64,000 bases of DNA from Solirubrobacterales bacterium (GTDB lineage Bacteria > Actinomycetota > Thermoleophilia > Solirubrobacterales > 70-9), in the NCBI GenBank assembly GCA_035693065.1, contig DASSHE010000015.1, forward strand, positions 18,814-82,813, given 5' to 3'. Position numbers and translations under genes: made by a program. Shown here piece after piece: positions 10,154-26,585 of this stretch. The notes beneath the pieces were generated by a model. That model was not told the origin of the DNA. It was given only the letters and a program-made list of their open reading frames with translations, and made no database searches. Position 1 is the first letter of the stretch. Every line of letters begins with the position of its first letter.

Positions 10154-10628
10154 GGGGCGGTTTGGCCAGGTCGCCCTCCAGACCCAACGCACGATAATGG
10201 TGGTTATGTGAACTCGTGGGGGATTCTGGGAGCGTCTCGGGCATGCACACCTCGATACAGCGCCATTGACCGTTCGGCCAAGTTATTCCGCCCCATTGAA
10301 GCAGGCCCGCCTCTTGCAGGTCGTCGAGGCAGCGCCGGACGCTCTTGGCGAAGCTGCTGAAGTCGCGCGCTTTGTCGCCAGTCACCGGGTACCCCAAGCC
10401 GGCGGCGGCCTGGGTCAGCGTGGCCCGAAAACGAGTGCCTTCGGCGAACGCCTTCCGGACACACCATCGGTACGCGCGGTCCCTGCTCTCCAAGCAGTCT
10501 CGCCGGAGCGTCCGGGGCTTGATCGCCTGTAGGGCCTCCGCGACTTCCTCCAGGCTCTGCGGTCGCCAATCGGCGCCGGTAGGGCTCTTACTATTAGTTA
10601 GCCGCTCGGGGGCTGATGCACCAGCCAT
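10131..10628 (-). CDS. hypothetical element-end protein (possible winged-helix-like DNA-binding protein); ORF reads through the attL repeat into host flank
   Basis: ATG at 10628. The last ~28 codons (..SSHNHHYRALG..) are encoded by the boundary repeat and host flank. No enzymatic motif recognised. Confidence 0.45.
   Translation of the reverse strand: MAGASAPERLTNSKSPTGADWRPQSLEEVAEALQAIKPRTLRRDCLESRDRAYRWCVRKAFAEGTRFRATLTQAAAGLGYPVTGDKARDFSSFAKSVRRCLDDLQEAGLLQWGGITWPNGQWRCIEVCMPETLPESPTSSHNHHYRALGLEGDLAKPPLRAPARR
10187..10214. repeat. left boundary repeat, dif-like (attL candidate): ACGCACGATAA-TGGTGG-TTATGTGAACT
   Basis: Shares the 12-nt core TGGTGGTTATGT plus GATAA and AACT with the copy at 26557-26585. 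The ATAA-N6-TTAT inner palindrome and TTATGTnAAcT arm resemble dif XerD-side arms. Confidence 0.6.
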
Positions 10629-10693
10629 CGGGCGGCATCTTTGTGTGACCGGCGGACGGAATCGCGCCAGGGGCGTTTAGGATCGCCCGCAGT

Positions 10694-11068
10694 ATGTGGA
10701 GGCTCTTCCAATTCGGGGTAGTCGCGGTGCTCGCGGGGGCATTAGGCGTAGCCGCGGGTTTTCACCTCCAAGACTCGCAAGGGTCCTCCGGGGCCACCAC
10801 CCGTGTCCTGAGCGGGAATAACGTTGCCCAGTACATCGACGATCGCCTGGGCCTCTCCTCTTTCTCGTCCCAGGACGGCGCGATCTGCCCCGAGCACATT
10901 CCCGCGATCAAGGGCAGGGTCGTCCACTGTCAGGTCGCTTACGAAGGCCACCAGGTGGGCGCCGAAGTGAAGGTCGTCAGCAAACTTGGCCTTGTGCGCC
11001 TTGTTGGCCTCTACGGGTGGACCGGGCCCGGGTGTTGGGAATACCTCCCGTGTTATGGCCGTCCCTGA
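10694..11068 (+). CDS. membrane-anchored DUF4333-like protein
   Basis: N-terminal TM is FGVVAVLAGALGVAAGF, followed by a Cys-containing beta domain (ICPEHIPAIKGRVVHCQV...EVKVV) resembling DUF4333. Confidence 0.5.
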   Translation: MWRLFQFGVVAVLAGALGVAAGFHLQDSQGSSGATTRVLSGNNVAQYIDDRLGLSSFSSQDGAICPEHIPAIKGRVVHCQVAYEGHQVGAEVKVVSKLGLVRLVGLYGWTGPGCWEYLPCYGRP

Positions 11069-11445
11069 AACCGCGCCGCCAGCTGCACCAACACCGGCTC
11101 CCGGCCGGCGCGTAGCTCGTCGATCGCCGCCATAGCGATCGCCTTCGCGAGCTCCTGGTCCGCGGTGTTCCACTGCTCGACCCGCTGCACCCCGCCGGGC
11201 ACCGGCTCGAACGCCTCCAGGCCGCGGCCGCGGAATTCGGCCCGGACCTCGAACGTCGCCCGCGGCGCTTCGCCGCCGCCGGTCAGCGGCCGCCCCACCG
11301 TCGTCGCCCCCTCCAGCGGCACGATCTCAACCTTCCACTGCGGGTCGCCCCCCGTGATCGAGAAGATCGCCTTGCCGCGGGTGACGCTGCCGCTGTAGCC
11401 GATCCGCGGGGTTGCCGCTGGATCAGCCCTTGGAATTGAGCCCAC
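11053..11445 (-). CDS. hypothetical protein (130 aa), last gene of the leftward operon
   Basis: GTG start overlaps the preceding small ORF. Composition looks coding. No motif recognised. Confidence 0.5.
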   Translation of the reverse strand: MGSIPRADPAATPRIGYSGSVTRGKAIFSITGGDPQWKVEIVPLEGATTVGRPLTGGGEAPRATFEVRAEFRGRGLEAFEPVPGGVQRVEQWNTADQELAKAIAMAAIDELRAGREPVLVQLAARFQGRP

Positions 11446-11602
11446 GTCGTCTCCCTCCCCAGGCGTCGAGGACGCCCCGGTTGTAGTCGTTCACCCGGCG
11501 ATAGGCCGCTTCGCGTCCCCGCCAGTAAGCGAGCAGCGGGATCACCATCAGCCACAGGAGCACCCGCAGGACCATCGATTTTTCGGCCGCCCCCGGGTTC
11601 AT
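11423..11602 (-). CDS. small membrane protein (59 aa, below the ORF-track cutoff)
   Basis: My own translation: MNPGAAEKSMVLRVLLWLMVIPLLAYWRGREAAYRRVNDYNRGVLDAWGG.... The ATG overlaps the upstream stop (ATGA at 11599-11602). One TM helix. Confidence 0.45.
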   Translation of the reverse strand: MNPGAAEKSMVLRVLLWLMVIPLLAYWRGREAAYRRVNDYNRGVLDAWGGRRRGLNSKG

Positions 11603-11844
11603 CGCTTCGCCGCTTCCTTCTCCTGTTCGCCGAGCTGCTGCAGCAGGTTCACCTCGGCGGCCGCCGCCGAGTAACCGATGTAGTGCAGCTCCTGGTAGCT
11701 ATTCCCCATGTACCAGCCGGGGCCTTGCCGGACGTGCCGCGGCGGTACGTGGTAGTAGGTGACGATCTCCGGCGGCTCCGCCAGCTGCTGGGCGAGGATG
11801 CGCAGCCGGGTGCCCCGTTCGCCTAGCCCCGGCACCGACCCCAC
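11599..11844 (-). CDS. hypothetical protein (81 aa) downstream of the ATPase
   Basis: Coding-like composition. Stop is coupled to the next ORF. Confidence 0.55.
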   Translation of the reverse strand: MGSVPGLGERGTRLRILAQQLAEPPEIVTYYHVPPRHVRQGPGWYMGNSYQELHYIGYSAAAAEVNLLQQLGEQEKEAAKR

Positions 11845-11879
11845 GTCCCTTTCCTGACTGGTGCTCCCACTGCCGACCT

Positions 11880-12560
11880 CTAGGCTGGCGTCTTTCGCTC
11901 AACGATGTTCTTCCGGCGCAGGTGCTCGGGAAGCGGCTTGCAGATGATCGGCTCCGAGTAGCCCTTGCGAAACCAGATGAAGGAGTGGGGTCCGTGCTCG
12001 GCCTGGGCCTGCTGCAGCATCTCCTGCAGCTGGCCCTTGGAGACCCCGATCCCGATCCTGGCGATCGCCAGGAGCTCGTCGTCGCCCTGCGGGGGCACGA
12101 CGACAAAGACGTGCTGGACCTCGGTCTTGCCGCGCACCGGCATTTCCACCGGCCGCTGGGATCCGCCCATGAACCCACACCCCCAGGCCCCGCCCTTGGA
12201 GATGTAGGCGGAGATGTTCGGCGGGGTCCGCTGCGCGCTGAAGTTGCACAGGTCCCCCATCTCGTGGGCGCAGATTGAGATCGGCCGTTTGCGTTCCCGC
12301 GCGATCGCGAAGACCGGCTCCATCTCCATCGGGTCGTCGGTCTGCGTGACGAGGTGGATGATCGGCGCGGTCCAGTCGATCGCCTCCACCGAATGCACGG
12401 GCTCGACCCCGGGGATCCCCCACTCCCCACCCTTGGTGTCGAGCAGGATGCGCTGACACCGAAGGGTGGAGAACAGGTGGTTCAACAGCTCGGACTTACC
12501 CGAGCGCGTTTCGCCCAGCACCAGCACCCGCTGGTGGTAGAGGATGCCGCCGCCGCTCAC
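11880..12560 (-). CDS. FtsK/HerA-superfamily P-loop ATPase (candidate genome-packaging ATPase, PRD1 P9 / A32-like)
   Basis: Size is 226 aa. Walker A is VLVLGETRSGKS and a Walker B-like motif is PISICAHEMGD. The GFMGGSQRPVEMP motif parallels LVLATQRPS in the host FtsK in this same window. Confidence 0.75.
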   Translation of the reverse strand: MSGGGILYHQRVLVLGETRSGKSELLNHLFSTLRCQRILLDTKGGEWGIPGVEPVHSVEAIDWTAPIIHLVTQTDDPMEMEPVFAIARERKRPISICAHEMGDLCNFSAQRTPPNISAYISKGGAWGCGFMGGSQRPVEMPVRGKTEVQHVFVVVPPQGDDELLAIARIGIGVSKGQLQEMLQQAQAEHGPHSFIWFRKGYSEPIICKPLPEHLRRKNIVERKTPA

Positions 12561-12688: not shown

Positions 12689-13033
12689 TCAGCCCTCCTG
12701 CTTCGGCGCCCGGCTCTCCGGGTCGATGGTCTCGGGTTCCAGGGCGATGAAGCTCTTCCCCGGGTCTTCCTCGAGCGCGGTCTTACCCGCGTCGAGGACG
12801 TCGCCGTCGAGCTCGAAGTGGAGCTCGTCGCGCTCGCGCTCGACCTCGGCCAGGTGCTCCAGTACCGCCTCCACCCTCTGGCCTTGGCGATCGCGGATCC
12901 GCTCGGCCCGCTCCTCGGCCCGGCGGATCCTCTTCGCCGCGCGGCGTTCGCCGGCGAGGATCAGGATCCCCGCGACCGCGACCGCCAGGTAGGCCAGGGT
13001 GAACTCGCCGGGTGCCTCTCCCCCGGGCTTCAC
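12689..13033 (-). CDS. membrane-anchored coiled-coil protein (114 aa)
   Basis: GTG at 13033 overlaps the upstream stop (GTGA). TM is FTLAYLAVAVAGILILAG, followed by a charged helical region RRAEERAERIRDRQGQRVEAVLEHLAEVERERDEL. Confidence 0.5.
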   Translation of the reverse strand: MKPGGEAPGEFTLAYLAVAVAGILILAGERRAAKRIRRAEERAERIRDRQGQRVEAVLEHLAEVERERDELHFELDGDVLDAGKTALEEDPGKSFIALEPETIDPESRAPKQEG

Positions 13034-13317
13034 GCGACGCCCTCGACCTTGTACTCGTGGAGGATTTCGAGCTCGGCAAGGGCGCCCGAAAGGCAGTCGG
13101 TGATGGCTGGGTCGTCGGTGTCGCTGTAGAGGCTCAGCAGCCACCTGACGATCCCGAGCAGCTGCGCGTCGAGCTCCTCCGGCGTGTCGGGGATCAGCGC
13201 CGAGAGCATCGGCTTGGCCATCCCGAGCATCTGCAGCATCCGCGCCGTCTGCTCGTCCTCCGGCTGCACTCCCTCGGCGCCCGCGAGCGCCTGGTCCAGC
13301 TTCTCCAGTGAGTTCAT
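13030..13317 (-). CDS. acidic hypothetical protein (95 aa)
   Basis: Internal ATG (MNSLEKLDQ...) at 13317 follows an AAGGAC ribosome-binding site. The listed longer N-terminus is Arg/Pro-rich and overlaps the upstream gene. Confidence 0.55.
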   Translation of the reverse strand: MNSLEKLDQALAGAEGVQPEDEQTARMLQMLGMAKPMLSALIPDTPEELDAQLLGIVRWLLSLYSDTDDPAITDCLSGALAELEILHEYKVEGVA

Positions 13318-13330
13318 CGTGTCCTTTCGC

Positions 13331-13945
13331 TTAGCTGATCTGCCACTCGACGCCGCCCGGTTCCCCGTGGGGTCCGGGCTCCGGCGGTCCTGCGCCGGGC
13401 GGGGCCTTGACCCCGGTGATCGGCACCTCTTCCTCGGCTTGCGCTCGAAGCACTTCGGCCCGTTCCCGGGTGCTGCGCACCCCGTAGGCCCCAAGCCCCA
13501 GGGCGAGGGCTACCGGGTCGCCCATCGCCGCGGCCGCGGCCGTCGCCGGGTAGCGGTTCAAGATCCGCGTCAGCGGACCGCCGATCGCTTTGAGGTCAGC
13601 CTGCGTGTGCAGCCAGTCCTGGTCGGCGACGCCGATCGCGCCGTGGAGCAGCTGCCCCTGCACGTCCAGCAGGTCCTGCACGGTGCCCTCCTCCCAGGCG
13701 ATCTCGGGCGTAGGCAAAGCATGAATGTCAGCTTGAGGCTGAGGCTCGGGGCCTGGCGGCGCCTGCTCGGCGTCGAAGGCAGGCCCGGGCTCGGCGATGA
13801 ACGGGCTACCCAGCGGCGAGGGCGTCGCGGACGCCGTCCCAGAAGCCGCCACCGGCTCCTCCCCGGCGTTGATCGCCGCCGCCTCGCGCGGGCTCGGGGT
13901 TCCCGCCTCCGTCGTCGGCTGGTCCGGTTGGCTCGGGTCGTTCAT
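13331..13945 (-). CDS. hypothetical protein with Pro/Ala/Glu-rich N-terminus (204 aa)
   Basis: ATG (MNDPSQ...) at 13945 is preceded by GAGGAAG. The C-terminal half looks globular (VQDLLDVQGQLLHGAIGVADQDWLH...). Confidence 0.55.
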   Translation of the reverse strand: MNDPSQPDQPTTEAGTPSPREAAAINAGEEPVAASGTASATPSPLGSPFIAEPGPAFDAEQAPPGPEPQPQADIHALPTPEIAWEEGTVQDLLDVQGQLLHGAIGVADQDWLHTQADLKAIGGPLTRILNRYPATAAAAAMGDPVALALGLGAYGVRSTRERAEVLRAQAEEEVPITGVKAPPGAGPPEPGPHGEPGGVEWQIS

Positions 13946-14183
13946 CGGCTTCCTCTCGCGTCGGGGTCGGGGCGGGCGGCTCAGGCGCATCGCCGTAATC
14001 GAGAACGGTGGGTCCCTGCCCGGGCACATGCCCTGGCTCGGCCCCGCTGTGCCCGGGCACGTGCCCGGGCTCGGGGGCGGCTTTGCCAGGGCTCAGCAGT
14101 TGCTCGGCCTGCTTGCGGCGCCCGGCTGCCAGGGCTTCAAGCTGGCGCTGGCGCTTCTCGGGGTCGTTGCTGAGCCCTGGCAT
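13806..14183 (-). CDS. hypothetical first ORF of the leftward operon (125 aa), overlapping the next gene in another frame
   Basis: MPGLSNDPEKRQRQLEALAAGRRKQAEQLL... contains an EPGHVPG duplication. Its last ~140 nt overlap CDS 13331..13945, so the true extent is uncertain. Confidence 0.35.
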   Translation of the reverse strand: MPGLSNDPEKRQRQLEALAAGRRKQAEQLLSPGKAAPEPGHVPGHSGAEPGHVPGQGPTVLDYGDAPEPPAPTPTREEADERPEPTGPADDGGGNPEPARGGGDQRRGGAGGGFWDGVRDALAAG

Positions 14184-14438: not shown

Positions 14439-14540
14439 ATGAAGACGGGGCTGATCGCCCTCCTCTTCATCCTCCTGTTCAAGTTCGTGGCGGCGAAGTC
14501 GAACATCGCCGGCCTGCAGAGCGTGGCGGGGGCGGTCTGA
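14439..14540 (+). CDS. small membrane protein (33 aa) immediately upstream of the capsid-protein candidate
   Basis: MKTGLIALLFILLFKFVAAKSNIAGLQSVAGAV. The stop overlaps the next ATG (TGATG at 14538-14542). Confidence 0.45.
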   Translation: MKTGLIALLFILLFKFVAAKSNIAGLQSVAGAV

Positions 14541-15823
14541 TGCGCGCCGAGCTCCTCGACAACCCCGTCAAGCGGATGCCCCAGAGCTTCCGCTTCACCG
14601 GCGAGCTCCGTGAGGCGTTCCGCGCCCGCGGCATCGACCTGGCCGACAGCGAGGCCGTCGCCGGCCTGATCGATCGCGGCCTCGGCCCGATCTCCGGCGG
14701 CGCGACCGGCATGGACGGCGCCGCCTTCATGCACAACCTCCCGCCCGAGGGCACCTTCGAAATGAACTCCGATCTGTTCTTCGCGCAGACGGAGCGAAAC
14801 GACGTGCCCCAGGGTCAGGTGGCCTTCCCCGGCCTCGGCGGTGCGCCATTCGACGTGCGGCTCTCCAACGTCGGCGTCCTGGCGAGCATCAAGATCATCT
14901 TCGAAGGCTCGCTCGTCGTCGCCGGCGGCGGCACCTGCACGGCCACCTACCAGTGGCCGTGGAACACGATGAAGCGCTTCTCGCTGTCGGCCAACGGGCA
15001 GACCTCCCTGCTCTCGGCCGAGGGCATGGACCTGCGGGCGCGCAACCAGCGGATCTACCGCAACCCGCGCGACCCCATGACCACGGCCACCCAGACCGAC
15101 GGCGTCTTCGGCGACCCCCAGGCCGGGGTGATCGCCAACGGCACCTACCCGATCCAGCTGATCTACGAGGTGCCGATCATCCACGACTGGTACACCCTGA
15201 CCGGCGCCCTGTTCGCACAGTCCGACCAGATCTACCTGGGCTGGCGCTTCACGCCGGCGGCGACCGCCGAACTGTTCACCCTCACCGGCGGCTCGACGGC
15301 GACGCTGACCGGGACGGTCAAGAGCACGACCACGTTCTTCGACGTCCCCTACGCCGACGTCCAGGGCGGGCGCAAAGTGCTGATCCCCGACCTGCAGTGG
15401 CTGCACGGGTTCGTCGGCTCGGATCTGCCTTTCGCCAACACCGGCGACGTCAAAGCGCCGTTCATCCGCACCAGCGGCGAGCTCCTGGCCTACTACTCCT
15501 ACCTCGACAACGGCGGCGCCGCGGTGATCGACCCCACGGCGCTCTCCGAGATCCGCTTCGAGTACGGAGGCAACCGCAAGCCGAGGGTCCACAACCCGCC
15601 GACCACGCTCCTCGACAAGAACGTCAAGGACTACAACGGCCGCATCCTGCCCAAAGCCGGCTACTCGGTCTTCGACTTCGAGTCCGACAACCCGAGCCGC
15701 GACCTGGTCTTCCCGAAGGGGGTGACGGAGCTGCAGACGGTGTTCGGGATCCCCGCGGGGACGACGATCAACGCCAACGCTCACGTCCACTTCGTGGAGG
15801 AGGCCCTGTTCGCAGGGCGCTGA
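14540..15823 (+). CDS. candidate double jelly-roll major capsid protein (PRD1 P3-like), 427 aa
   Basis: Internal ATG of listed ORF 14183..15823. No TM segments and beta-rich. Motifs FDVRLSNVGV, YEVPIIHDWYTLTGALFAQ, YSYLDNGGAAV and LPKAGYSVFDFESDNP run collinear (offset of roughly 40-50 residues) with PRD1 P3 FDVTPANVGI, YWVPLAYSETDLTGAVLAN, FDNGGS and FPKGVYYCDNRDKP, as recalled from memory. Confidence 0.65.
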   Translation: MRAELLDNPVKRMPQSFRFTGELREAFRARGIDLADSEAVAGLIDRGLGPISGGATGMDGAAFMHNLPPEGTFEMNSDLFFAQTERNDVPQGQVAFPGLGGAPFDVRLSNVGVLASIKIIFEGSLVVAGGGTCTATYQWPWNTMKRFSLSANGQTSLLSAEGMDLRARNQRIYRNPRDPMTTATQTDGVFGDPQAGVIANGTYPIQLIYEVPIIHDWYTLTGALFAQSDQIYLGWRFTPAATAELFTLTGGSTATLTGTVKSTTTFFDVPYADVQGGRKVLIPDLQWLHGFVGSDLPFANTGDVKAPFIRTSGELLAYYSYLDNGGAAVIDPTALSEIRFEYGGNRKPRVHNPPTTLLDKNVKDYNGRILPKAGYSVFDFESDNPSRDLVFPKGVTELQTVFGIPAGTTINANAHVHFVEEALFAGR

Positions 15824-15824
15824 G

Positions 15825-16232: not shown

Positions 16233-16240
16233 GGGGTCGC

Positions 16241-17258: not shown

Positions 17259-17262
17259 CACC

Positions 17263-17414: not shown

Positions 17415-17421
17415 GGAATCG

Positions 17422-18963: not shown

Positions 18964-18967
18964 GCGG

Positions 18968-20977: not shown

Positions 20978-21672
20978 GCGATCTCGCGAGCTGGAGCTCG
21001 GCGCCGGCGGCTCCCACCCTCGCCACGATCTTCGTCGGCGACGGCAGCACCAACAACGTCAAACAGTTCGTCGAAGAACAGGCGCCGGCCGAACGGATCA
21101 AAGTCGTTGAGGAAGTCGTCGGCAAAGGCGCCCTGGTGCTGCAGTTCGAAGTGCGCGAAGGCGACCCCGAAATCGCCGCCGGCCACCGCTCCGAGCTCGT
21201 CTCCGGAAAGACCTTCCGCCACGGCGACCACCTCTTCTTCGGCTTCGGCGTCAAGCGCGAAGAAGGCGACAACACCCCGGGGCACTGGCAGATGTTCTTC
21301 CAGTTGCACGACCAGAGCGGGGGCTCGCCGCCGCTGTGCCTGCAGTACTTCAAATCCGGCGGCAAGGTCTGGGCGTGGCTCGGCTCGGGCGACGGCACCA
21401 AGGAATACTGGGAAGGCGAAGTCGGCGAAGAAGGCAAAGCCTGGGTCGACCTGCTGATCCGCCTCAAGGTTGGCACCACCGACGGTGAAATCGAAGTGTG
21501 GCGGGACAAGGTCCTGCAGAAGCTGATCGGCGGGGGCACGGTCAAGCGCGGCCAGAACACCGAGGGCGTCGCGCCGCTCTACGACAAGATCGGCATCTAC
21601 CGCACCGGCGCCTCGGTCGGCACCACCAAAACCCGGATGCGTAACTACTTCATCGCCAGGGTGCTGCCGTGA
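20974..21672 (+). CDS. polysaccharide-lyase-like / ConA-like jelly-roll protein (spike or receptor-binding/depolymerase candidate)
   Basis: GTG at 20974 (GTGA overlap). HRSELVSGKTF..GDHLFFGF...WQMFFQLHD...PPLCLQY...WVDLLIRLKVGTTDGEIEVWRD...LYDKIGIYR matches the Polysacc_lyase (PF14099-type) pattern. Confidence 0.55.
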   Translation: MSDLASWSSAPAAPTLATIFVGDGSTNNVKQFVEEQAPAERIKVVEEVVGKGALVLQFEVREGDPEIAAGHRSELVSGKTFRHGDHLFFGFGVKREEGDNTPGHWQMFFQLHDQSGGSPPLCLQYFKSGGKVWAWLGSGDGTKEYWEGEVGEEGKAWVDLLIRLKVGTTDGEIEVWRDKVLQKLIGGGTVKRGQNTEGVAPLYDKIGIYRTGASVGTTKTRMRNYFIARVLP

Positions 21673-21992
21673 GCGCCGCCATGAACAACGTCCAGGCGCC
21701 GGACACCTACACCACCGCGGCGACCCTCACCTGCCCCGGCACCGCCCGGGTGCGGCTGCAGATCAACAACCAGGCGATCTACTGGCAGCGCGGCTACAGC
21801 TCCCCCGGCGGCGGCGGGATCGAATGGCAGCCCGAAGAGATGCTGCTGCCGATCACCGCGAGCCTCGACGAGCGCTGCGACGCGATCCGCATCCGCGCCG
21901 CGGTGCCGTTGGCCAAACTCCCGGCCGGCTCCGAACAGGCCCGGGTGACTATCGGCACCCGTACCGCCGCCGAGATCGGCGAAGCGGCATGA
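21669..21992 (+). CDS. small beta-rich hypothetical protein (107 aa)
   Basis: GTGA-coupled start and ATGA-coupled stop. No recognised motif. Confidence 0.5.
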   Translation: MSAAMNNVQAPDTYTTAATLTCPGTARVRLQINNQAIYWQRGYSSPGGGGIEWQPEEMLLPITASLDERCDAIRIRAAVPLAKLPAGSEQARVTIGTRTAAEIGEAA

Positions 21993-22690
21993 GCGACGCG
22001 CTGACCCCCAGCTTCATCACGGTCGACGCCGCCGGCAACGTCGGCGCGATCTTCCCGGGGACGATCGTCGCGGGCAACATCAAAGTCGGCGACCTCTCCG
22101 AGATATCCCCGGCGCTGGGCGAAATCACCAGCGGCCTGATCGAAGGAACCACGATCCGCGGTTCGGTGTTTGAAACCAACGCCGAATCCGGCAACAACCT
22201 GGTGATCAACAACAACGGGATCACGCTGCAGGCATCCGGCGAAGCCGTCCCCAAAATCCTCAGCACGATCAAGTGGGAAAAGTCGGGGTCGATCACCGGG
22301 CAAGTCTGGACCTCTGCGCAGGCTTCCAACGACCTGCGGGTGAAGGTGAAGGGCGCCAAAGAAGGCCCCGACGTCGAACGGACGATCATCAACAACCTCG
22401 GCTGGTCGAGCTTCCTGCAGCTGGCCAAACTCCAGGCGGCAAAGGTCGAATTCGGCGCGGGTAACTGCGGCTGGAACGCCGGCGCCCACCTCAGCAACAC
22501 CACGGTCGTCGAACACGGCCTTGGCGCGGTTCCGCGCCTGGTCCTCGTGTCCCCCTATCAGTCCGAAGGCGAAACCCACATCGCGATCTTCAACGCCTTC
22601 GCCTACACCGAAACCACCTTTAGCGTCAACGGCTACTGGCCCGGCATCGGGCCTGGAAATAACGGGTTCAAATGGATGGCGATCGTCTAG
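21989..22690 (+). CDS. spike/fibre-like protein (233 aa)
   Basis: ATG at 21989 (internal to listed ORF 21824..22690). Gly/Asn/Thr/Ser-rich beta-type sequence (GNNLVINNNGITLQASG..). Its position follows the lyase-like protein. Confidence 0.5.
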   Translation: MSDALTPSFITVDAAGNVGAIFPGTIVAGNIKVGDLSEISPALGEITSGLIEGTTIRGSVFETNAESGNNLVINNNGITLQASGEAVPKILSTIKWEKSGSITGQVWTSAQASNDLRVKVKGAKEGPDVERTIINNLGWSSFLQLAKLQAAKVEFGAGNCGWNAGAHLSNTTVVEHGLGAVPRLVLVSPYQSEGETHIAIFNAFAYTETTFSVNGYWPGIGPGNNGFKWMAIV

Positions 22691-22872
22691 CCGGGCAGCC
22701 ACCGGCCGAGCCCGCCGCGGCCGACGGGATCCTGATCAGCCTCCAGCGCGACGGCGACCAGGTGCAGCTTGACGTCACCAGCCTGGGCGACGTCCGCGTC
22801 ACCGAGCTCCCAGCGCTCCTCGGCCTCGCCCGCAAGCTCTCCGAAGACCGCCTCGGCATCGGGAGGGGGTGA
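22672..22872 (+). CDS. hypothetical protein (66 aa)
   Basis: ORF overlaps the previous stop by 19 nt. Acidic. Confidence 0.4.
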   Translation: MDGDRLAGQPPAEPAAADGILISLQRDGDQVQLDVTSLGDVRVTELPALLGLARKLSEDRLGIGRG

Positions 22873-22877
22873 GTCAA

Positions 22878-22970
22878 GTGAAGCCCAAGGGCCACAAGAA
22901 GTCCTGCCCCTGCCCCGTCTGCCGCAAGAGCCGGCGCCGCCGCAAGAGCCGTCGTCGCCGCAAGCGCTGA
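22878..22970 (+). CDS. 30-aa Arg/Lys-rich peptide with CPCPVC motif
   Basis: GTG follows GGGAGGGGG. VKPKGHKKSCPCPVCRKSRRRRKSRRRRKR. Below the ORF-track cutoff, my own translation. Confidence 0.35.
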   Translation: MKPKGHKKSCPCPVCRKSRRRRKSRRRRKR

Positions 22971-23025
22971 CCCCGTACTCGAGTCGAGTCTTACCGCCGT
23001 CGACCACGGCGCCGAAAGGAAGCAA

Positions 23026-23370
23026 ATGAACCCCTATCCGCCCAAGCGCCTCGCCGTCGTCCTGGTCGGCCTGCTCGCGCCTTTGATCATGGCCTTCTCG
23101 ACCGTCGTCGCCAACGAGGCCCAGACGCTCCTGCACCTGCACCTCGCCGGCGATGCCCTGGCCGCCTATCTCTCCACCTTCCTGATCGCGGTCGGCGCCG
23201 TCCTCTTCCGCCTTCTGGAGCACGAGGCGTCGCGGTTCCTGCACGGCCTGGTGCAGCTGCTCCTCAAGTCCTCGGCGTCCATGCCGATCCCCCAAGCCTC
23301 GCCCGGTCCTCCCCCACCGCCACCGCCCGGGCCGACCGCCGTGGTCCCGCCGACCCCGCCGAGCGCATGA
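23026..23370 (+). CDS. holin-like membrane protein (114 aa)
   Basis: AAAGGAAG ribosome-binding site. Two TM helices (LAVVLVGLLAPLIMAFSTVV, AAYLSTFLIAVGAVLFRLL) and a Pro-rich tail. Immediately precedes the hydrolase-like gene with an ATGA overlap. Confidence 0.55.
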   Translation: MNPYPPKRLAVVLVGLLAPLIMAFSTVVANEAQTLLHLHLAGDALAAYLSTFLIAVGAVLFRLLEHEASRFLHGLVQLLLKSSASMPIPQASPGPPPPPPPGPTAVVPPTPPSA

Positions 23371-23984
23371 GCGTCCGCGAGCGGATCAAGAAGCTGCGCT
23401 ACCACCTGGCGCTGGGCAGGAAGCGGATCGCGCGGATCGTCGGCTTCAACACCCGCCGCCGCCGTGCGATCAAGCGGCTGCGCGACGAGCTCGGCTCCCG
23501 GGTGATGTTCGACTCGGTGACGATCGAGGAGATCCCCAAGAACGCCGACGCCGTCGCCGGCTACACCGGCGGCAACTGGCCGACCTACTGGGAGCTGGTC
23601 AAGAGGTTCCCCCACGCCTCGGTGCTCGACATCGCGATCGCGGCCTCCTACGACGCCACCTGTCTCGATATCGAGTCCGGCGACGCCTCCCCGGAGGAGG
23701 CTCCGTCCTGGGTGCGGCGCCAGCAGGCCCGCGGGGTCAAGCGCCCGGTCGTCTACACCAGCGCCTCGCAGATGGACGAGCTCCTGGCCCTGCTCCGGCG
23801 AGCCGGGATCGGCCGCCACGAGGTGCGGGTCTGGACGGCCCACTACACCTTCGCGCCGCACCTCTGCGGTCCACACACCTGTGGGGAAGTCCAGAGCACC
23901 ACGGCCGACGCCACCCAGTGGACCGACCAGGCGCTGGGGCGTAACCTCGACCAGAGCCTCTTGCATGAGGGCTTCTTCGGCTGA
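23367..23984 (+). CDS. endolysin candidate, Rv2525c-like/DUF1906 (GH25-related TIM-barrel-like) domain
   Basis: AVAGYTGGNWPTY...ASVLDIAI...CLDIESGDA...PVVYTSASQ...VWTAHY...ATQWTD resembles the glycoside-hydrolase-like DUF1906 family. Confidence 0.5.
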   Translation: MSVRERIKKLRYHLALGRKRIARIVGFNTRRRRAIKRLRDELGSRVMFDSVTIEEIPKNADAVAGYTGGNWPTYWELVKRFPHASVLDIAIAASYDATCLDIESGDASPEEAPSWVRRQQARGVKRPVVYTSASQMDELLALLRRAGIGRHEVRVWTAHYTFAPHLCGPHTCGEVQSTTADATQWTDQALGRNLDQSLLHEGFFG

Positions 23985-23988
23985 GCCG

Positions 23989-24228
23989 GTGGGAGGCGAA
24001 GGAATCATTGCCGCCGCCGTCGGCGCGCTCGCCGGCGGCGGCGGCGTGCGCGCCCTGGGGCGCTTCATCGGCCCCCAGCACCGCGCCGACGTCGCCGAGT
24101 ACTACCGGGAGGTGATCGAAGGTCTCGTCGAGGAAAACCGCGAACTGCGGGCCGAGCTCGCGGGCATCCGCCGGCGGATCACCGACCTGGAGCTGGCCCA
24201 GGACGACCCCCCGCCCCACCTCGGCTGA
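23989..24228 (+). CDS. small TM plus coiled-coil protein (79 aa), lysis accessory candidate
   Basis: GTG at 23989. Hydrophobic N-terminus is GIIAAAVGALAGGGGV, followed by the heptad-like EVIEGLVEENRELRAELAGIRRRITDLELA. Confidence 0.45.
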   Translation: MGGEGIIAAAVGALAGGGGVRALGRFIGPQHRADVAEYYREVIEGLVEENRELRAELAGIRRRITDLELAQDDPPPHLG

Positions 24229-24254: not shown

Positions 24255-24293
24255 GCGGCCTTCGAGCGGTGCCCGCTGGTGATCCGTCGCGGG

Positions 24294-24415
24294 CTTCTGG
24301 CCAGAAGTAAGACGCCGACGTCGGCGGGGCGCCCTCGGCCGAAAGCACCCCGCCGACGTCGGCGGTCTTACCTGGATCCGGGTCTTACCGCGCCGACGTC
24401 GACGCGGTAAGACCC
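24294..24415. promoter_or_regulatory. cluster of nested palindromes carrying four GTAAGAC half-sites (operator/iteron/bidirectional-terminator candidate)
   Basis: CTTCTGGCCAGAAG lies at 24294-24307. GTAAGACgCCGACGTCGGCGGGG (24307-24329) pairs with CCCCGCCGACGTCGGCgGTCTTAC (24348-24371). A 36-nt near-perfect palindrome GGGTCTTACCGCG...CGCGGTAAGACCC lies at 24380-24415. Confidence 0.6.
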
Positions 24416-24428
24416 GGAGATCCCCCAC

Positions 24429-24635
24429 CTACTTCTTCTTCGGCACCTTGGCGTCGCGGATTGCCTGGCGCAACACTTCGCTGCGCTTTCGCGGCGTGCC
24501 GCGGTAGTGGTAGTGGTAACCCATTGGCACCCCGTATTCGGCTTCGGCGAGTTCGTCGAGCTTCGCCAGGTCCTCGTCGCTGAGCTTGACCGAGATCGTC
24601 GTGCGCCGGCCGTTCCAGGTCTCCTGCGGCATCAC
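24429..24635 (-). CDS. ribbon-helix-helix (CopG/Arc/MetJ-type) DNA-binding protein
   Basis: 68 aa. RRTTISVKLSDEDLAKLDELAEAE...RSEVLRQAIRDA fits a beta-strand plus two helices. Flanked on both sides by GTAAGAC palindromes. Confidence 0.6.
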   Translation of the reverse strand: MMPQETWNGRRTTISVKLSDEDLAKLDELAEAEYGVPMGYHYHYRGTPRKRSEVLRQAIRDAKVPKKK

Positions 24636-25000
24636 CGACCTCCAGCTGCAGACTGGTAAGACCCGTCGCGATCGCGACGGGTCTTACTCGCCGCCGGCGG
24701 GCGGTAAGACCCGCCTCGACGAGCAGGGCACGGCACCACCCGCGGCGGCGAGCCCAGGACGTGGAGGACGACGTAGCAGCGGTGCCGCGACCACAGGGTC
24801 CCGGCCTGCGTGCTCGGCGCCCGGACGCCGACGATGAGCACCACGGCGAGGACGATCGCCGCGGCGCGGCGCTCCAGCTGCTTGCGCGCCTTCGTGGCTT
24901 GCACAATTTCGGCGCGACGGCCCTGCCCTCGCTCCCGTTGCTTCTTGTGGAAGTACTGCACGAGGAAGGGCCTCGGGTATCCCTGCGGTGCATCAGCCAT
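24632..25000 (-). CDS. hypothetical small membrane protein (122 aa as ORF; C-terminal third doubtful)
   Basis: ATG at 25000 (MADAPQGYP...) with TM AAAIVLAVVLIVGV. The distal part is Arg-rich and is encoded by the palindrome region, so the real product may be shorter or the region non-coding. Confidence 0.4.
   Translation of the reverse strand: MADAPQGYPRPFLVQYFHKKQRERGQGRRAEIVQATKARKQLERRAAAIVLAVVLIVGVRAPSTQAGTLWSRHRCYVVLHVLGSPPRVVPCPARRGGSYRPPAASKTRRDRDGSYQSAAGGR
24656..24712. promoter_or_regulatory. perfect 32-nt palindrome GTAAGACCCGTCGCGATCGCGACGGGTCTTAC plus one more GGTAAGACC copy, just upstream of the RHH gene
   Basis: Palindrome at 24656-24687 and extra half-site at 24704-24710. Located 21 nt upstream of the RHH start codon. 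Confidence 0.6.
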
Positions 25001-25322
25001 TGACAACTACCTCCCGTCTGTCTCGCTTCTTCAACCAAGGGTTGGCCGCGAGCGCAGCGGCGTGTCGCCGTTCGCGCTCGCGGCGGCTCCGCCGCAGCTG
25101 CTCGGTGTGTCGCGCCCAGGCGATTTCGGAGATCCCGTCCACCGCAAGGACGAAGTTGGCGACCTGGTCGAGGCCGATACCGACGCCCTCGACCAAACCG
25201 CCGCGCTTGCCGACGATCGCCAGATGCACACCTTCACCGTGCAGGGCCGGCCGCACCAGCACGGCCCTGCCCTCGGTTGTGGGGATGCGCTCGGCGACCG
25301 GCCCCTGCCGGCCGGCGATCAC
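24993..25322 (-). CDS. hypothetical protein (109 aa) with basic C-terminus
   Basis: Coupled to neighbours by short overlaps on both sides (25319-25322 upstream, 8 nt downstream). Basic tail is RRSRRERERRHAAALAANPWLKKRDRR. Confidence 0.5.
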   Translation of the reverse strand: MIAGRQGPVAERIPTTEGRAVLVRPALHGEGVHLAIVGKRGGLVEGVGIGLDQVANFVLAVDGISEIAWARHTEQLRRSRRERERRHAAALAANPWLKKRDRREVVVNG

Positions 25323-25780
25323 GCGACACGCCTGGGGTCAAACGCCGGGGCCATCAGCGCCTCAAGGCGCTGGCGCTCGCCGCCTGACAAGCAGGCGTCG
25401 TGAAGGCCGACTGGCGCCGGCGCCATTGGGTTCAGCGCCTGGCCGATCGCGTCGATCGCGACGTCGATCGCGCTCTCATGCAGGCGCATCACCTTCTCCG
25501 GCGTGGTCTCGCCGTAGGCGTAGAACCAGATGCAGGCGAGCTCGCCGGTGAAGGCAATCCGCGCGGTGCCGTTGAACGTGCGGATCAGCGCCGGCAGGCG
25601 CCGCTCCAGGGCATCCTGCAGCTGCTCGGCCTGCTTGTGGCCGAGCATGATTCCGTAGGCACCCTTTGAACCGCGCTGCCCTTCGGCGTAATACCAGGCG
25701 TGTAGCACGCCGTCGATCGGCGGGCCGCCCCCGATTACGAGGTCTCCGCCGCCGTGGGTGGCGATCGTCCTTCCGTCCAT
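25319..25780 (-). CDS. hypothetical protein (153 aa)
   Basis: Internal ATG (MDGRTIATHGG...) at 25780 follows AAGGAG. The listed longer ORF upstream is Arg/Ser-rich and overlaps the next gene. Confidence 0.55.
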   Translation of the reverse strand: MDGRTIATHGGGDLVIGGGPPIDGVLHAWYYAEGQRGSKGAYGIMLGHKQAEQLQDALERRLPALIRTFNGTARIAFTGELACIWFYAYGETTPEKVMRLHESAIDVAIDAIGQALNPMAPAPVGLHDACLSGGERQRLEALMAPAFDPRRVA

Positions 25781-25784
25781 GCGA

Positions 25785-26345
25785 TCATGCTCCTTCGGTT
25801 GATCGTTCGCCGGCGCCGTGGTTACCGCCGCGGCGCCGGCCTTTCTTTCGCTTGGGGGGAGCCCAGCTAGACCGCCAACCCGGCGGCGCCGTCTCCTCCC
25901 GCTCGGCGCTCTTGCGGCGCCAAGATTTCGACACTTCCTCCAGCAGGGGGATGAAGTACGCAGCCGATCGCGGTCGCTGGACCCGGCCCCAGCGACACTC
26001 CTCGATGTGGGCATCGACCATCGCGGTCGCGAACTCCAGCCCCGCTCCCTCCCGGCCGCGGCCGAAGTCGGCGTAGTGGTCCATTCGAGCGAAGACCCGC
26101 TCCAACCGCTTGTGGGCGAAAAAGGGCTCCTCGGGCTGCAACCGCTCCTCGACGTGGCGCAGGAAGGCCGCCACGGCCGGTGAGACGCGCCGTGGTCGCG
26201 ATCCCGGACCGGCCCGACCCCCGCCCCTACCCAGCTGCGGTTGGCCCGGCTCGCTGCCGGGGCTGGCACCCTCGGGTGATCCTGGGCGCGGCAACGCCGC
26301 GCTGGCCCCTGGGCAGTTAGTCGGCGGGGCGCAGCCCCGCTGCAT
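25785..26345 (-). CDS. hypothetical early protein (186 aa), first gene of the leftward early module next to attR
   Basis: ATG at 26345 (MQRGCAPP...). Globular core is FLRHVEERL...FAHKRLERVFARMDHYADFGRG...MVDAHIEECRWGRVQRPRSAAYFIPLLEEV with a basic tail. Function unknown. Confidence 0.5.
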   Translation of the reverse strand: MQRGCAPPTNCPGASAALPRPGSPEGASPGSEPGQPQLGRGGGRAGPGSRPRRVSPAVAAFLRHVEERLQPEEPFFAHKRLERVFARMDHYADFGRGREGAGLEFATAMVDAHIEECRWGRVQRPRSAAYFIPLLEEVSKSWRRKSAEREETAPPGWRSSWAPPKRKKGRRRGGNHGAGERSTEGA

Positions 26346-26351
26346 GGTCGC

Positions 26352-26411
26352 CTCGTCGCGCGCGCGCGACGAGCCCTTTAAGGGTTTAGGCCCCCCTAGG
26401 GGGCTAAACCC
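26352..26411. promoter_or_regulatory. perfect 22-nt palindrome CTCGTCGCGCGCGCGCGACGAG plus adjacent hairpin GGTTTAGgCCCCC-CTAG-GGGGGCTAAACC
   Basis: Located at 26352-26373 and ~26383-26410, directly upstream of the 26345 start. An A8 tract follows at 26442-26449. Confidence 0.45.
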
Positions 26412-26556
26412 CCCTTCAGGACTGGGCACTTCGCCCGAACCAAAAAAAATGCGCCGGGCCGTAGAGGCGGCCCTGTGGGGGCGCCGACGATCGTCCTCCT
26501 GAGCCCCCAGGGGGCGCCTGGACGGCAGGCGTCGGTGCGTTCCACGCGTTCCACGG

Positions 26557-26585
26557 CGCGCAGATAACTGGTGGTTATGTCAACT
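26557..26585. repeat. right boundary repeat, degenerate dif-like (attR candidate): GCGCAGATAAC-TGGTGG-TTATGTCAACT
   Basis: Direct repeat of 10187-10214 with one extra C after ATAA and a G-to-C change in the right arm. It lies 4 nt from the stop of host gene 26590..27300. Confidence 0.6.

Follow-up and report, generated by a model that had tools for sequence, protein, structure and literature searches.

The DNA at 10187-26585 of a 64-kb window (the whole stretch analysed, from a Solirubrobacterales bacterium of the Actinomycetota) is a 16.4-kb provirus, and it raises two questions: to which group of viruses it belongs, and how it integrated with no recognisable integrase. In our assessment, positions 10198-26574 quite probably represent, in its integrated state, a temperate virus that has a circular dsDNA genome of ~16.4 kb and integrates via host Xer. 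The best reading of its affiliation is a tailless, internal-membrane, double jelly-roll virus (class Tectiliviricetes) with a host in the Solirubrobacterales (Actinomycetota).

Gene content and the modelled capsid protein

Gene layout was derived from third-position GC frame analysis, which resolves a leftward arm (14183-11053), a rightward late operon (14439-24228) and a leftward early module (26429-24429). The three-block layout proposed in an earlier sequence-only reading, with an RHH gene closing the early module, was thereby reproduced. The element has the same GC content as the host and contains ~35 ORFs, ~20 of them without a Pfam or PHROG family match; apart from the capsid gene, no ORF exceeds 262 aa. 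There is no tRNA in the 64-kb window.

Left arm
10694-11068 (+): membrane-anchored protein, 124 aa (TM 7-25; DUF4333, PF14230, E 9e-5, below cut-off)
11053-11445 (-): conserved protein, 130 aa (GC3 0.88; 49-65% identity in L004, L006 and L007; no family match)
11423-11602 (-): protein with one TM segment, 59 aa
11599-11844 (-): conserved protein, 81 aa
11880-12560 (-): FtsK/HerA-type P-loop ATPase, 226 aa, putative genome packaging (Walker A GETRSGKS)
12689-13144 (-): protein with one TM segment, 151 aa, start codon uncertain
13030-13317 (-): acidic conserved protein, 95 aa
13331-14183 (-): first gene or genes of the arm, a frameshift or true overlap; Pro/Ala-rich protein (13331-13945 or 13331-14029) and, in another frame, an overlapping conserved ORF (13806-14183)

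Late operon
14439-14540 (+): membrane protein opening the operon, 33 aa (64-87% identity in relatives checked)
14540-15823 (+): capsid protein, 427 aa (PF09018, E 0.001; AF2 and Foldseek)
15825-16232 (+): protein with C-terminal TM anchor, 135 aa
16333-16473 (+): membrane protein, 46 aa
16470-17258 (+): two-TM protein whose N-terminal half is basic, 262 aa
17263-17415 (+): membrane protein, 50 aa
17422-17823 (+): conserved soluble protein, 133 aa
17824-18462 (+): N-terminally anchored protein with Lys/Pro-rich repeat tail, 212 aa (tandem repeats, 21-nt x3 and 57-nt x2)
18463-18963 (+): protein with peptidoglycan-binding-like C-terminal domain, 166 aa (phrog_1493 endolysin, E 3e-4; faint PG_binding_1 in the L001 homologue)
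18968-19240 (+): membrane protein, 90 aa
19237-19809 (+): transglycosylase-like protein with C-terminal TM anchor, 190 aa (no family match in the window copy; SLT, SLT_3 or 3D at the same position in relatives)
19806-20558 (+): M23-like peptidase with C-terminal TM anchor, 250 aa (PF01551, E 0.03; phrog_3084, E 2.5e-4; PF01551 on the L006 and L129 homologues, NlpC/P60 instead in other relatives)
20555-20977 (+): conserved protein, vertex or spike-complex candidate, 140 aa (no family match)
20974-21672 (+): polysaccharide-lyase-fold protein, ~232 aa (PF14099, a solid match at E 2e-18)
21669-21992 (+): protein common to all relatives examined, 107 aa (no family match)
21989-22690 (+): variable protein, spike candidate, 233 aa
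22672-23029 (+): a small ORF of 66 aa and perhaps a second of ~86 aa, whose coding status is uncertain
23026-23370 (+): holin candidate with two TM segments, 114 aa
23367-23984 (+): wall hydrolase candidate, distantly GH25-like, 205 aa (PF01183, E 0.086; 73% identity in L006; a GH25 gene at the same position in L127)
23965-24228 (+): coiled-coil protein, ~80 aa, last of the operon
24315-24362: terminator-like hairpin (stem 20 bp), lying where the late and early units converge

Early module
24429-24635 (-): ribbon-helix-helix regulator, 68 aa (PF01402, E 1e-7, above cut-off)
24632-25322 (-): two early genes, 24632-25000 (one TM segment) and 24993-25322
25319-25780 (-): early protein, 153 aa

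The largest and most conserved gene of the element encodes the 427-aa protein, which had been described from sequence as the one large, soluble, beta-rich protein of the late operon. Structural modelling shows it as a double jelly-roll capsid protein with the PRD1 P3 fold: the AF2 model (pLDDT 84.5, pTM 0.79) has PR772/PRD1 P3 as its top PDB match in Foldseek (E 5e-19 to ~1e-18, TM 0.64-0.75, ~380 columns), followed by STIV, and in the viral library BFVD the capsid proteins of Gluconobacter phage GC1 and Bacillus phage Wip1 come out on top. A BLAST chain leads from this protein to the capsid protein of a 16.9-kb Streptomyces plasmid (E 6e-25) and from there to the Tectiviridae phage phiG2 (E 3e-16). 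The protein has 274 homologues; in its exact form it is recorded from a single contig.

The 226-aa protein, previously proposed as an FtsK/HerA-type ATPase, carries a Walker A motif and an SQRP motif whose SQ-P residues are invariant in the alignment. Its residues 9-209 are colinear with residues 5-206 of the 212 in the STIV2 packaging NTPase B204. The profile matches against PDB are HerA (8xau, E 0.006) and B204 (4kfr, E 0.059), and three of six family members show a weak FtsK_SpoIIIE match; with weak E-values of 0.006-0.1, the FtsK/HerA assignment is putative. No terminase gene was found in the element, although the ATPase weakly matches phrog_2666 (E 0.003), a family annotated 'terminase large subunit'. 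Likewise, no ORF of the element matched a polymerase, integrase, portal, tail or HK97 capsid family in Pfam or PHROG, and the ORFs gave no match to relaxase, Rep or Tra families either.

The picture of a PRD1/tectivirus-like tailless provirus lacking polymerase, integrase, terminase and tail genes is thus supported by the capsid fold, the ATPase and the bounded ends; portal and tail homologues had been named as evidence that would speak against it, as had non-viral families for the capsid protein and the ATPase, and both comparisons favoured the viral reading. At least nine small or anchored membrane proteins had been claimed, and a crude hydropathy scan predicts TM segments in at least 10 late-operon products. 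Of the proposed wall proteins, the peptidoglycan-binding and M23-like ones have weak matches in the window and the transglycosylase-like one has none; wall-enzyme families (SLT, M23, NlpC/P60, PG_binding_1 and GH25) occupy the corresponding positions in relatives.

Other roles can be suggested for individual genes. The polysaccharide-lyase-fold protein has no tblastn match in relatives, varies between them, and is a candidate receptor-binding or depolymerase spike; the 107-aa protein we infer only as a candidate penton base. The 124-aa protein, product of the sole rightward gene of the left arm, may serve lysogeny or exclusion; in L001 the corresponding position holds an Imm_superinfect gene.

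Provirus ends and the empty chromosomal site

The ends previously placed at 10187 and 26585 fall on a pair of imperfect direct repeats (10186-10217 and 26556-26588). By sequence, they are two dif-like sites. The flanking host genes are convergent, as originally described; they prove to be methyltransferase and CarboxypepD_reg genes on the left and a DsbA-like gene on the right.

8751-9410 (+): host methyltransferase, left flank
9476-10153 (+): host CarboxypepD_reg protein, left flank
10186-10214 (+): attL, apparently a complete dif-like site; host XerC-type arm AACGCACGATAA (10186-10197), spacer TGGTGG (10198-10203), XerD-type arm TTATGTGAACT (10204-10214)
26556-26585 (+): attR, GCGCGCAGATAAC + TGGTGG + TTATGTCAACT; degenerate viral left arm GCGCGCAGATAA and one additional C (26568), spacer (26569-26574), host XerD-type arm TTATGTCAACT (26575-26585)
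26590-27300 (-): host DsbA-like thioredoxin, right flank

From spacer to spacer the provirus measures 16,371 bp. Across the whole 64-kb window the motif GATAA-N5-8-TTATGT has only two matches, one per end of the element (0.00 expected from shuffles).

The empty site that the sequence-only reading had proposed to seek in related genomes was recovered from at least 119 species-representative Solirubrobacterales genomes. It is an almost invariant 28-mer with an 11+6+11 dif layout, contained in the short spacer that alone lies between methyltransferase and DsbA homologues. Each matched contig has one copy, with the same orientation and neighbours in nearly all of these genomes. The 28-mer columns outside the search pattern are mostly at least 90% conserved, whereas the flanks drop to 30-50% and the flanking proteins are only 55-65% identical. 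The right-arm G-variant of attL is found naturally in 14 of 119 empty sites. Just one in 119 species representatives has a provirus there, which shows that the element is not fixed; the block is a bounded element with an unoccupied site in relatives, not boundary-less core genome.

The 28-mer looks like a chromosome-dimer resolution site (dif). Its layout agrees with the dif sites listed in PMC3025954, and in the right arm 10 of 11 positions are shared with the dif predicted for Frankia alni. The host encodes FtsK with a gamma domain; neither xerC nor xerD was among the 24 host ORFs scanned in the window.

In the L001 provirus the spacers differ, with CGGTAG in attL and TGGTGG in attR, which places strand exchange at the left-arm/spacer border, and contig L007 begins exactly within the spacer. 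It is at the left-arm/spacer border that XerC cuts. The viral arm opposite the conserved arm is very degenerate, and L001 and L005 have no recognisable Xer half-site there.

A winged-helix gene split by integration

A conserved winged-helix gene of ~400 aa contains attP, so that integration splits the gene; its halves are at opposite ends in every provirus examined.

10131-10628 (-): N-terminal half; the reading frame continues out of the virus, through attL, into host DNA
25785-26180 (-): C-terminal helical domain (tblastn to L004 residues 276-346; alignment to relatives)
26180-26563 (-): linker; ORF open, no third-position GC signal

The gene is unbroken in the non-integrated contigs L004, L127 and L128, and also in P0121 and P0124. 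When attP was rebuilt in three independent proviruses, each yielded one ORF of 413-420 codons, with the other frames closing within 85 codons. In tblastn the N-terminal product aligns with the intact L004 gene (383 aa) over residues 16-129, and it is matched in every relative. The model of the protein has a winged helix and a helical bundle joined by a disordered linker, and no tyrosine or serine recombinase fold; the winged helix (AF2 of homologue P0126, pLDDT ~90) has weak wHTH fold matches, and the C-terminal bundle has pLDDT ~85. Since the linker lacks a coding signature, it could be regulatory DNA in which the frame simply happens to be open. The region is structured, with a hairpin plus T8 and the palindrome GTCGCGCGCGCGCGAC, and is a candidate attP accessory region or origin.

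Proposed integration by host Xer and its alternatives

Because the ends are dif-like, host XerC/XerD is the likely integrase, which would explain integration without a recombinase of the element's own; borrowing of the host enzymes is the most likely mechanism. XerC/XerD, which normally resolve chromosome dimers at dif, would pair the viral dif mimic with chromosomal dif, and strand exchange at the edges of the 6-nt spacer would insert the viral circle. One junction would stay a complete dif-like site, so that dimer resolution would still work, and the other would be a crippled hybrid. The winged-helix gene is a candidate replication initiator or regulator, which the split would switch off in the prophage and excision would restore. 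Replication would depend on host machinery, and virions are predicted to be PRD1- or PM2-like, with an internal membrane and DNA packed by the ATPase.

The same virus might instead integrate by an unrecognised recombinase of its own, the winged-helix or an early protein, with the dif likeness being target mimicry only. The ~20 of ~35 ORFs without a family match leave room for such an enzyme, one attP arm is so degenerate that no Xer half-site is obvious in it, and SSV-type integrase genes, too, are split by integration. We consider this highly unlikely: the modelled split protein lacks a recombinase fold and, being interrupted in the provirus, could not catalyse excision, and the other early ORFs are no longer than 153 aa. 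Moreover, strand exchange is placed at the edges of the spacer in a dif-like site, and other relatives, which integrate by their own means, have a tyrosine integrase (PF00589) and no dif-like motif.

That the element is a fossil, a decayed and non-inducible chromosomal remnant, is unlikely. The interrupted winged-helix gene and crippled attR could make excision inefficient, as it is for CTX phage; the exact capsid protein is recorded from one contig only, and in the JGI metagenomes no contig was found with the exact attP predicted for the window virus or for the L001 virus. However, none of the conserved genes is truncated, or frameshifted against relatives at 50-80% identity, and their third-position GC is strong; the interruption is the one that integration predicts and is reversible, as attP rebuilding shows; and the site is rarely occupied. 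Mobility is also indicated by a close relative seen both integrated (L006) and as a contig broken at the spacer (L007), and by L128, whose 30-nt terminal overlap indicates a free closed circle of 14,575 bp.

FtsK-like ATPases, peptidoglycan hydrolases and small membrane proteins are also typical of actinomycete conjugative elements, and two related Streptomyces elements were deposited as plasmids. A non-viral integrative conjugative or plasmid-like element, using these proteins for DNA transfer, is nevertheless very improbable: the largest and most conserved gene encodes a double jelly-roll capsid protein, matched to PRD1 P3 over its whole length, the ATPase is colinear with a viral packaging NTPase and not of TraB translocase size, a holin-hydrolase pair closes the late operon, and the relaxase, Rep and Tra families are missing from the ORF matches.

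Xer-borne integration has proposed counterparts elsewhere. NO16 (PMC9966536) and Jorvik (PMC10589892) are integrase-less circular membrane phages with dif-like attachment sites, for which a Xer-borne lifestyle was proposed, but their hosts are Proteobacteria, whereas the host here belongs to the Actinomycetota. Actinobacterial 'Toil-group' capsid-ATPase elements of ~16-17 kb, some without a polymerase, were catalogued in 2018 (PMC5894146). We found no description in the literature of Xer-borne integration for this capsid lineage or this phylum. Of the earlier suggestion of an undescribed lineage or lifestyle, the first part stands and the second does not: the element represents a lineage not described before and combines known features in a new way, with a lifestyle for which NO16 and Jorvik provide precedent.

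Gene content and the predicted virion

Genes were called by third-position GC, because random open reading frames are abundant at the ~70% GC of the window. The calls reproduced the layout proposed in the sequence-only reading, in which a leftward arm, a rightward operon and a leftward early module are set between convergent host genes.

Features of the element (provirus 10198-26574) and its host surroundings
8751-9410: host methyltransferase, left side, convergent on the element
9476-10153: host secreted CarboxypepD_reg protein, left side, convergent on the element
14183-11053, minus strand: leftward arm, called by third-position GC
14439-24228, plus strand: late operon of ~21 genes, called by third-position GC
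26429-24429, minus strand: early module, called by third-position GC
26590-27300: host DsbA-like protein, right side, convergent on the element
48107-51100, minus strand: host FtsK with alpha and gamma domains

The 427-aa protein (14540-15823, plus strand) matched the N-terminal domain of PRD1 P3 in Pfam (PF09018) at E 0.001, under the gathering score. An AlphaFold (AF2) model, for which the input was an alignment of 40 homologs, was confident (pLDDT 84.5, pTM 0.79). Its top solved structures were the P3 proteins of PR772 and PRD1 (E 5e-19 to 1e-16, TM 0.64-0.75, ~380 columns), followed by the STIV capsid protein and then by the capsid proteins of large eukaryotic DNA viruses (PBCV-1, iridovirus); PM2 P2 was not in the top 50 structural matches. 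In a library of viral models, the capsid proteins of the tectiviruses Gluconobacter phage GC1 and Bacillus phage Wip1 ranked first. The earlier claim of a PRD1-like virus is upheld by the best match to P3, and the structural model identifies the element as a virus of the double jelly-roll kind. A reading as a conjugative element was rejected because of the capsid protein.

The 226-aa protein (11880-12560, minus strand) carries the Walker A motif GETRSGKS and an SQRP motif in which S, Q and P are invariant in the alignment. A single-sequence search of the PDB gave nothing useful, and only a profile of six homologs produced weak matches, to HerA (E 0.006) and to the STIV2/STIV B204 packaging NTPases (E 0.06-0.1), with the 212-residue chain of STIV2 B204 covered nearly whole. 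Against Pfam FtsK_SpoIIIE the homologs reached E 0.016-0.11 only. These matches, weak but coherent, fit a putative packaging ATPase of the FtsK/HerA superfamily (A32-like).

The absence of polymerase, integrase, terminase and tail genes, also noted earlier, was found again: no polymerase, integrase, portal or tail family was detected among the element ORFs scanned with Pfam and PHROGs, the one exception being a weak match of the ATPase to a PHROG annotated as terminase large subunit, which is the single terminase-like signal. The largest ORF besides the capsid gene has at most 262 aa. At least 10 late-operon proteins have predicted transmembrane or hydrophobic segments, from which, with the missing tail, portal and terminase families, an internal membrane and a tailless icosahedral particle are predicted. 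A polysaccharide-lyase domain in the late operon is solid (E 2e-18), as is the assignment of the RHH gene; the remaining wall enzymes are weakly supported within the window, and Pfam marks at matching positions in relatives add to this support.

Several smaller features accompany these genes. Where the leftward arm starts, two ORFs (13331-14029 and 13806-14183, minus strand) overlap in different frames, each with tblastn matches in relatives; a frameshift, programmed or not, or a genuine overlap could account for this. The sole rightward gene of this arm (10694-11068, plus strand) codes for a membrane protein that weakly matches DUF4333; the related provirus L001 has an Imm_superinfect gene (1538-1735) at the matching position, and both may be exclusion genes expressed in lysogeny. 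A membrane-anchored late protein (17824-18462, plus strand) has a Lys/Pro-rich tail encoded by tandem repeats (21 nt x3 and 57 nt x2), and the break of the related circular contig L128 falls within the homolog of its gene. A hairpin with a 20-bp stem (24315-24362), between the convergent late operon and RHH gene, is probably a two-way terminator.

Ends of the element and the empty host site

Imperfect direct repeats, attL and attR, bound the element on its two sides. [quoted passage not shown] This dif-like motif is absent elsewhere in the window (expected number 0.00).

Attachment sites and dif sequences (arm, spacer, arm)
attL, 10186-10214: AACGCACGATAA-TGGTGG-TTATGTGAACT
attR, 26556-26585: GCGCGCAGATAA-C-TGGTGG-TTATGTCAACT
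attP of the window virus, inferred: GCGCGCAGATAA-C-TGGTGG-TTATGTGAACT, one arm degenerate
attP of L128, seen directly: CCAACGCACGATAA-TGTATG-ggtcgacaacc, one arm degenerate
attL of the related provirus L005: AACGCACGATAA-TGGTGG-agaagtcgttcc
Predicted circular attP junction of the window virus: GCGCGCAGATAACTGGTGGTTATGTGAACTCGTGGGGG
Predicted restored attB of the window virus: CAACGCACGATAATGGTGGTTATGTCAACTCAG
E. coli dif: GGTGCGCATAA TGTATA TTATGTTAAAT (PMC3025954)
Frankia alni predicted dif: CACGCCGATAA TGCACA TTATGTCAAGT (PMC3025954)

The right arm is identical to the predicted F. alni dif arm at 10/11 positions. The pattern CGCACGATAANGGTNGTTATGT was used to scan for the empty site with one genome per species, and gave at least 119 matches, nearly all in Solirubrobacterales and one per matched contig. 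In almost all, the orientation of the site is the same and it follows a methyltransferase homolog after a few hundred bases, with a DsbA homolog ~400 bases away, so that the methyltransferase-DsbA junction without a provirus, the check proposed in the sequence-only reading, was found in at least 119 genomes. With the capsid structure and the gene set, this empty site sustains the core of that reading.

The empty site is a single-copy, nearly invariant 28-mer with an 11+6+11 layout. Columns outside the fixed pattern (the two preceding A's, both N positions, and AAC after TTATGTn) are mostly at least 90% conserved, whereas the sequence flanking the 28-mer is only 30-50% conserved and the neighboring proteins are 55-65% identical, which argues that this 28-nt non-coding site is under strong purifying selection. 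It is a strong candidate for the chromosomal dif. In some genomes (L022, L040, L043, L051, L070, L083, L090, L105 and L122) the DsbA or methyltransferase homolog lies 1-7 kb from the dif-like site, and these genomes may hold other small insertions there.

Host genes to the left of the site are mostly directed rightward and those to its right mostly leftward, the latter side also including a VKOR-like membrane protein, an alpha/beta hydrolase, AhpC and cyclophilin. Host FtsK is ~21.5 kb from the dif-like site with the provirus subtracted. Both gene directions and the nearby FtsK would fit replication forks converging at the site; GC skew was uninformative as a terminus marker over 64 kb. Adjoining FtsK are recA, cinA and a RodZ-like gene (region including 44238-45341 and 46011-48097). 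Elsewhere in the host DNA, a 410-aa Cys-rich secreted protein (39911-41143, minus strand) is encoded in a 59% GC patch amid 70% GC and may represent horizontal acquisition. No known RNA families were detected in the window.

Probable circular genome and split winged-helix gene

The two provirus ends hold the halves of a winged-helix gene (10131-10628 and 25785-26180, with a linker at 26180-26563, all on the minus strand). In the related contig L004 (16.3 kb), a 383-aa protein matches the left end through residues 16-129 (10565-10242, minus strand) and the right end through residues 276-346 (26105-25857, minus strand), a match that is contiguous only with the two ends joined. When the viral arm of attR is joined to that of attL, one ORF results, free of the lone stop codon and of the frameshift. 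A scripted rebuild in three independent proviruses (window, L001 and L005) gave exactly one junction-spanning ORF in each, of 413-420 codons, with the remaining frames closed within 85 codons. Intact homologs of 362-426 aa, covering 89-97% of the rebuilt protein, are found on non-integrated contigs. The ends of contig L128 overlap by 30 nt and it is therefore a 14,575-bp circle, which carries CCAACGCACGATAA-TGTATG within its winged-helix gene. A search of JGI metagenomes gave no match to the exact predicted attP of the window virus or of the L001 virus. A linear genome with inverted terminal repeats was rejected, since the ends of L004 share only a 6-nt terminal inverted match and no such repeats occur in the related contigs L129-L133.

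In the model of the protein, a winged helix (pLDDT ~90) is connected to a helical bundle by a linker of ~90 disordered residues. All of its fold matches have E >0.1. Where the alignment covers a compact domain, the matched structures are winged-helix domains that bind DNA, some of them from plasmid initiators, and no recombinase fold is among the matches. The linker shows no third-position GC signal and is structured (RNA fold z = -2.9), and its DNA (26330-26560, minus strand) contains a hairpin followed by T8 and a GC palindrome, GTCGCGCGCGCGCGAC, both kept across relatives. Because of the missing GC signal and the conserved hairpin, T-run and palindrome, the linker may double as regulatory or origin DNA; the hairpin and palindrome might act in termination or attenuation, as an origin, or as accessory DNA for Xer. 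Counterparts of the linker lie at 4900-5040 in L005, 6190-6300 in L128 and 230-350 in the related contig L136, and at the peptide level the conserved region reads as the motif ASTARRIFF.

Relatives, route of integration and known systems

A word-indexed search of public assemblies found 274 relatives of the capsid protein at E <=0.001, with named sources in Solirubrobacterales, Solirubrobacteraceae, Capillimicrobium and Actinomycetota. Many are on contigs of 14.6-18.8 kb and others on large chromosomal contigs. When all 1.84 billion cluster representatives (50% identity) were searched with a profile, 329 capsid clusters were found, 109 of them below 1e-30. The capsid alignment found none in IMG/VR, and tblastn with the capsid protein and ATPase against 50,697 GenBank phage records gave nothing at E up to 1. 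A capsid protein with 27-29% identity to that of the window (E 6e-25) is encoded by two Streptomyces "plasmids", CP108637.1 (L138) and CP146839.1 (16.9 and 16.0 kb). This plasmid protein matches, at E 3e-16, the capsid gene of Lysinibacillus phage phiG2, a polymerase-encoding tectivirus whose genome is linear. Both records probably represent tectivirus-like prophages of episomal type that were deposited as plasmids. CP108637.1 also has SSB, LysM and GH25 genes and an ORF of 227 aa, possibly its ATPase.

Proviruses L005 (in the 2.85-Mb chromosome OY970377.1), L006 and L001 occupy the same host locus as that of the window and have two attP designs. In design B (window, L001) the viral right arm is good, the left arm is degenerate, and the winged-helix gene reads against the site; in design A (L005, L006, L128) the virus brings the left arm and spacer, the right arm is degenerate, and the gene reads with the site. 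A design A provirus is inverted in the host locus relative to design B, and in both designs one junction stays a complete dif-like site. Whole modules are also inverted between relatives, with the provirus in either orientation at the same locus: in the comparison of L001/L136 and L005 with the window, the ATPase arm of L001 is directed rightward, downstream of the late operon, and the early module of L005 is rightward. Not all relatives use a dif-like site, since the motif is absent from L004, L127 and L129-L133. A tyrosine integrase (PF00589) is encoded in L129 (3811-4629, E 4e-24), L130 (4602-5420), L131 (586-1404) and L133 (4010-4708), adjoining the winged-helix gene and in L130 taking its place. 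The capsid protein of the integrase-bearing relatives is 55-57% identical to that of the window. The integrase and the missing dif-like motif in these relatives indicate that the integration module was swapped within the family.

How the element integrates is best explained by hijacking of the host Xer system at dif. No recombinase of its own was found in the element by Pfam and PHROG scans, and the PF00589 integrase was readily detected in L129-L133 as a control. The winged-helix protein as the integrase was rejected on its fold. In SSV1 (a fusellovirus of archaea), attP lies inside the integrase gene, which integration splits to the provirus ends and excision restores. Targeting of a tRNA gene was ruled out, as the window has no tRNA, and so was a compositional island, as the GC of the element equals that of the host. 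In L001 the attL spacer is CGGTAG and the attR spacer TGGTGG, a difference that places the exchange at the left-arm/spacer border, which is the XerC cutting position in established Xer biochemistry. This mapping of the crossover to the spacer edge supports a putative dependence of integration on XerC/XerD, and the L001 spacers suggest a single strand exchange at the XerC position that would then be resolved by replication. No match to xerC or xerD was found among the 24 host ORFs of the window scanned. The contig of L007, the L006 virus from another sample, starts exactly within the spacer, as expected if alternative junctions coexist in its sample.

Among known viruses, the Tectiviridae (PRD1, Bam35, GC1, Toil, WheeHeim/Forthebois, phiG2; order Kalamavirales) share with the element a P3-type capsid protein of similar size that gives the best structural matches, a transitive sequence link to phiG2 through the Streptomyces plasmid protein, a small putative ATPase of the FtsK/HerA type, several small membrane proteins encoded in series downstream of the capsid gene, genes for a transglycosylase and an endopeptidase, and a size of 14-18 kb. 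Unlike them, the element lacks a protein-primed family B polymerase, terminal protein and inverted terminal repeats, and its genome is integrating and probably circular, with direct dif-like repeats at the ends and gene halves that join; its relative L128 closes into a circle. Like the IMEX, or integrative mobile elements exploiting Xer (CTX, VGJ and TLC phages of Vibrio, and temperate gokushoviruses), it has no recombinase of its own and a dif-mimic attachment site, and after its insertion, at what is a candidate chromosomal dif, one site is complete and dif-like and the other is a hybrid. TLC keeps the XerC arm and spacer without the XerD arm, as do L005 and L128. The known IMEX are, however, ssDNA phages or satellites of Proteobacteria and Bacteroidota, whereas the element is a dsDNA capsid virus of Actinomycetota whose family has two attP designs in opposite orientation. 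Its attP lies inside a viral gene, as in SSV1, but the product is a winged-helix protein with no recombinase fold.

NO16 and Jorvik are integrase-less circular membrane phages of Proteobacteria for which Xer-mediated integration has been proposed (PMC9966536, PMC10589892). With these Vinavirales (NO16 "Asemoviridae", Jorvik, PM2-like prophages) the element shares a probably circular dsDNA genome, a predicted temperate, tailless membrane-virus type, the lack of an integrase, and dif-like attP and attB sites (PMC9966536, PMC10589892). They differ in having genomes of 9-11 kb, a small PM2 P2-type capsid protein (~270 aa) and proteobacterial hosts, compared with a P3-like capsid protein of 427 aa, genomes of 14.6-17 kb, an actinobacterial host and an attP within coding sequence. 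The "Toil group" of Yutin et al. 2018 comprises actinobacterial elements of ~16-17.5 kb with common capsid, ATPase and lytic enzymes, only some with a polymerase and some with an integrase; members lacking a recombinase were interpreted as linear prophages kept outside the chromosome, or as linear episomes (PMC5894146). The Streptomyces "plasmids" of 16-17 kb are elements of this sort. The element resembles this group in host phylum, size and these shared genes, but Solirubrobacterales, integration at dif sites, circularity and a split gene are not mentioned in that account, and its supplements do not contain the terms Solirubrobacter, Conexibacter or Thermoleophil. A literature search of incomplete coverage found no paper linking the Xer mechanism to a P3-type capsid, Actinomycetota or a split gene.

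The element combines a P3-type capsid with a polymerase-less, probably circular genome and a dif-like insertion site, in a new phylum, and its attachment site splits a conserved gene. The sequence-only reading had proposed an undescribed lineage or lifestyle: the combination of P3 capsid, Actinomycetota and split gene is new, but the Xer-mediated lifestyle had already been proposed for NO16 (PMC9966536) and Jorvik (PMC10589892). The fuller reading, which we regard as evenly balanced, is that of an undescribed, family-level lineage of Solirubrobacterales viruses with a tectivirus-type capsid and a corticovirus-like lifestyle (circular, no polymerase, Xer insertion at dif), the first reported Xer-exploiting element in Actinomycetota, with sister viruses that use a tyrosine integrase or an inverted attP. 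Since attP lies within the coding sequence of the putative winged-helix initiator or regulator, integration and excision would act as a physical on/off switch for this gene.

Tailless membrane viruses are badly under-sampled. This capsid family was unseen in IMG/VR and GenBank phages despite its 274 relatives and 329 clusters, and searches of dif-flanking DNA could reveal more such proviruses overlooked by standard virus-detection pipelines. Besides a strong candidate for the Solirubrobacterales dif site, the element provides a natural case of integration splitting a viral regulatory or replication gene, and would bring a dsDNA virus from a high-GC phylum of Gram-positive type into the range of Xer hijacking. 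Protein-primed linear replication is no necessary companion of the PRD1-type capsid module, and genome type and integration system, whether a dif mimic of either design or a tyrosine integrase, are interchangeable modules within one family.
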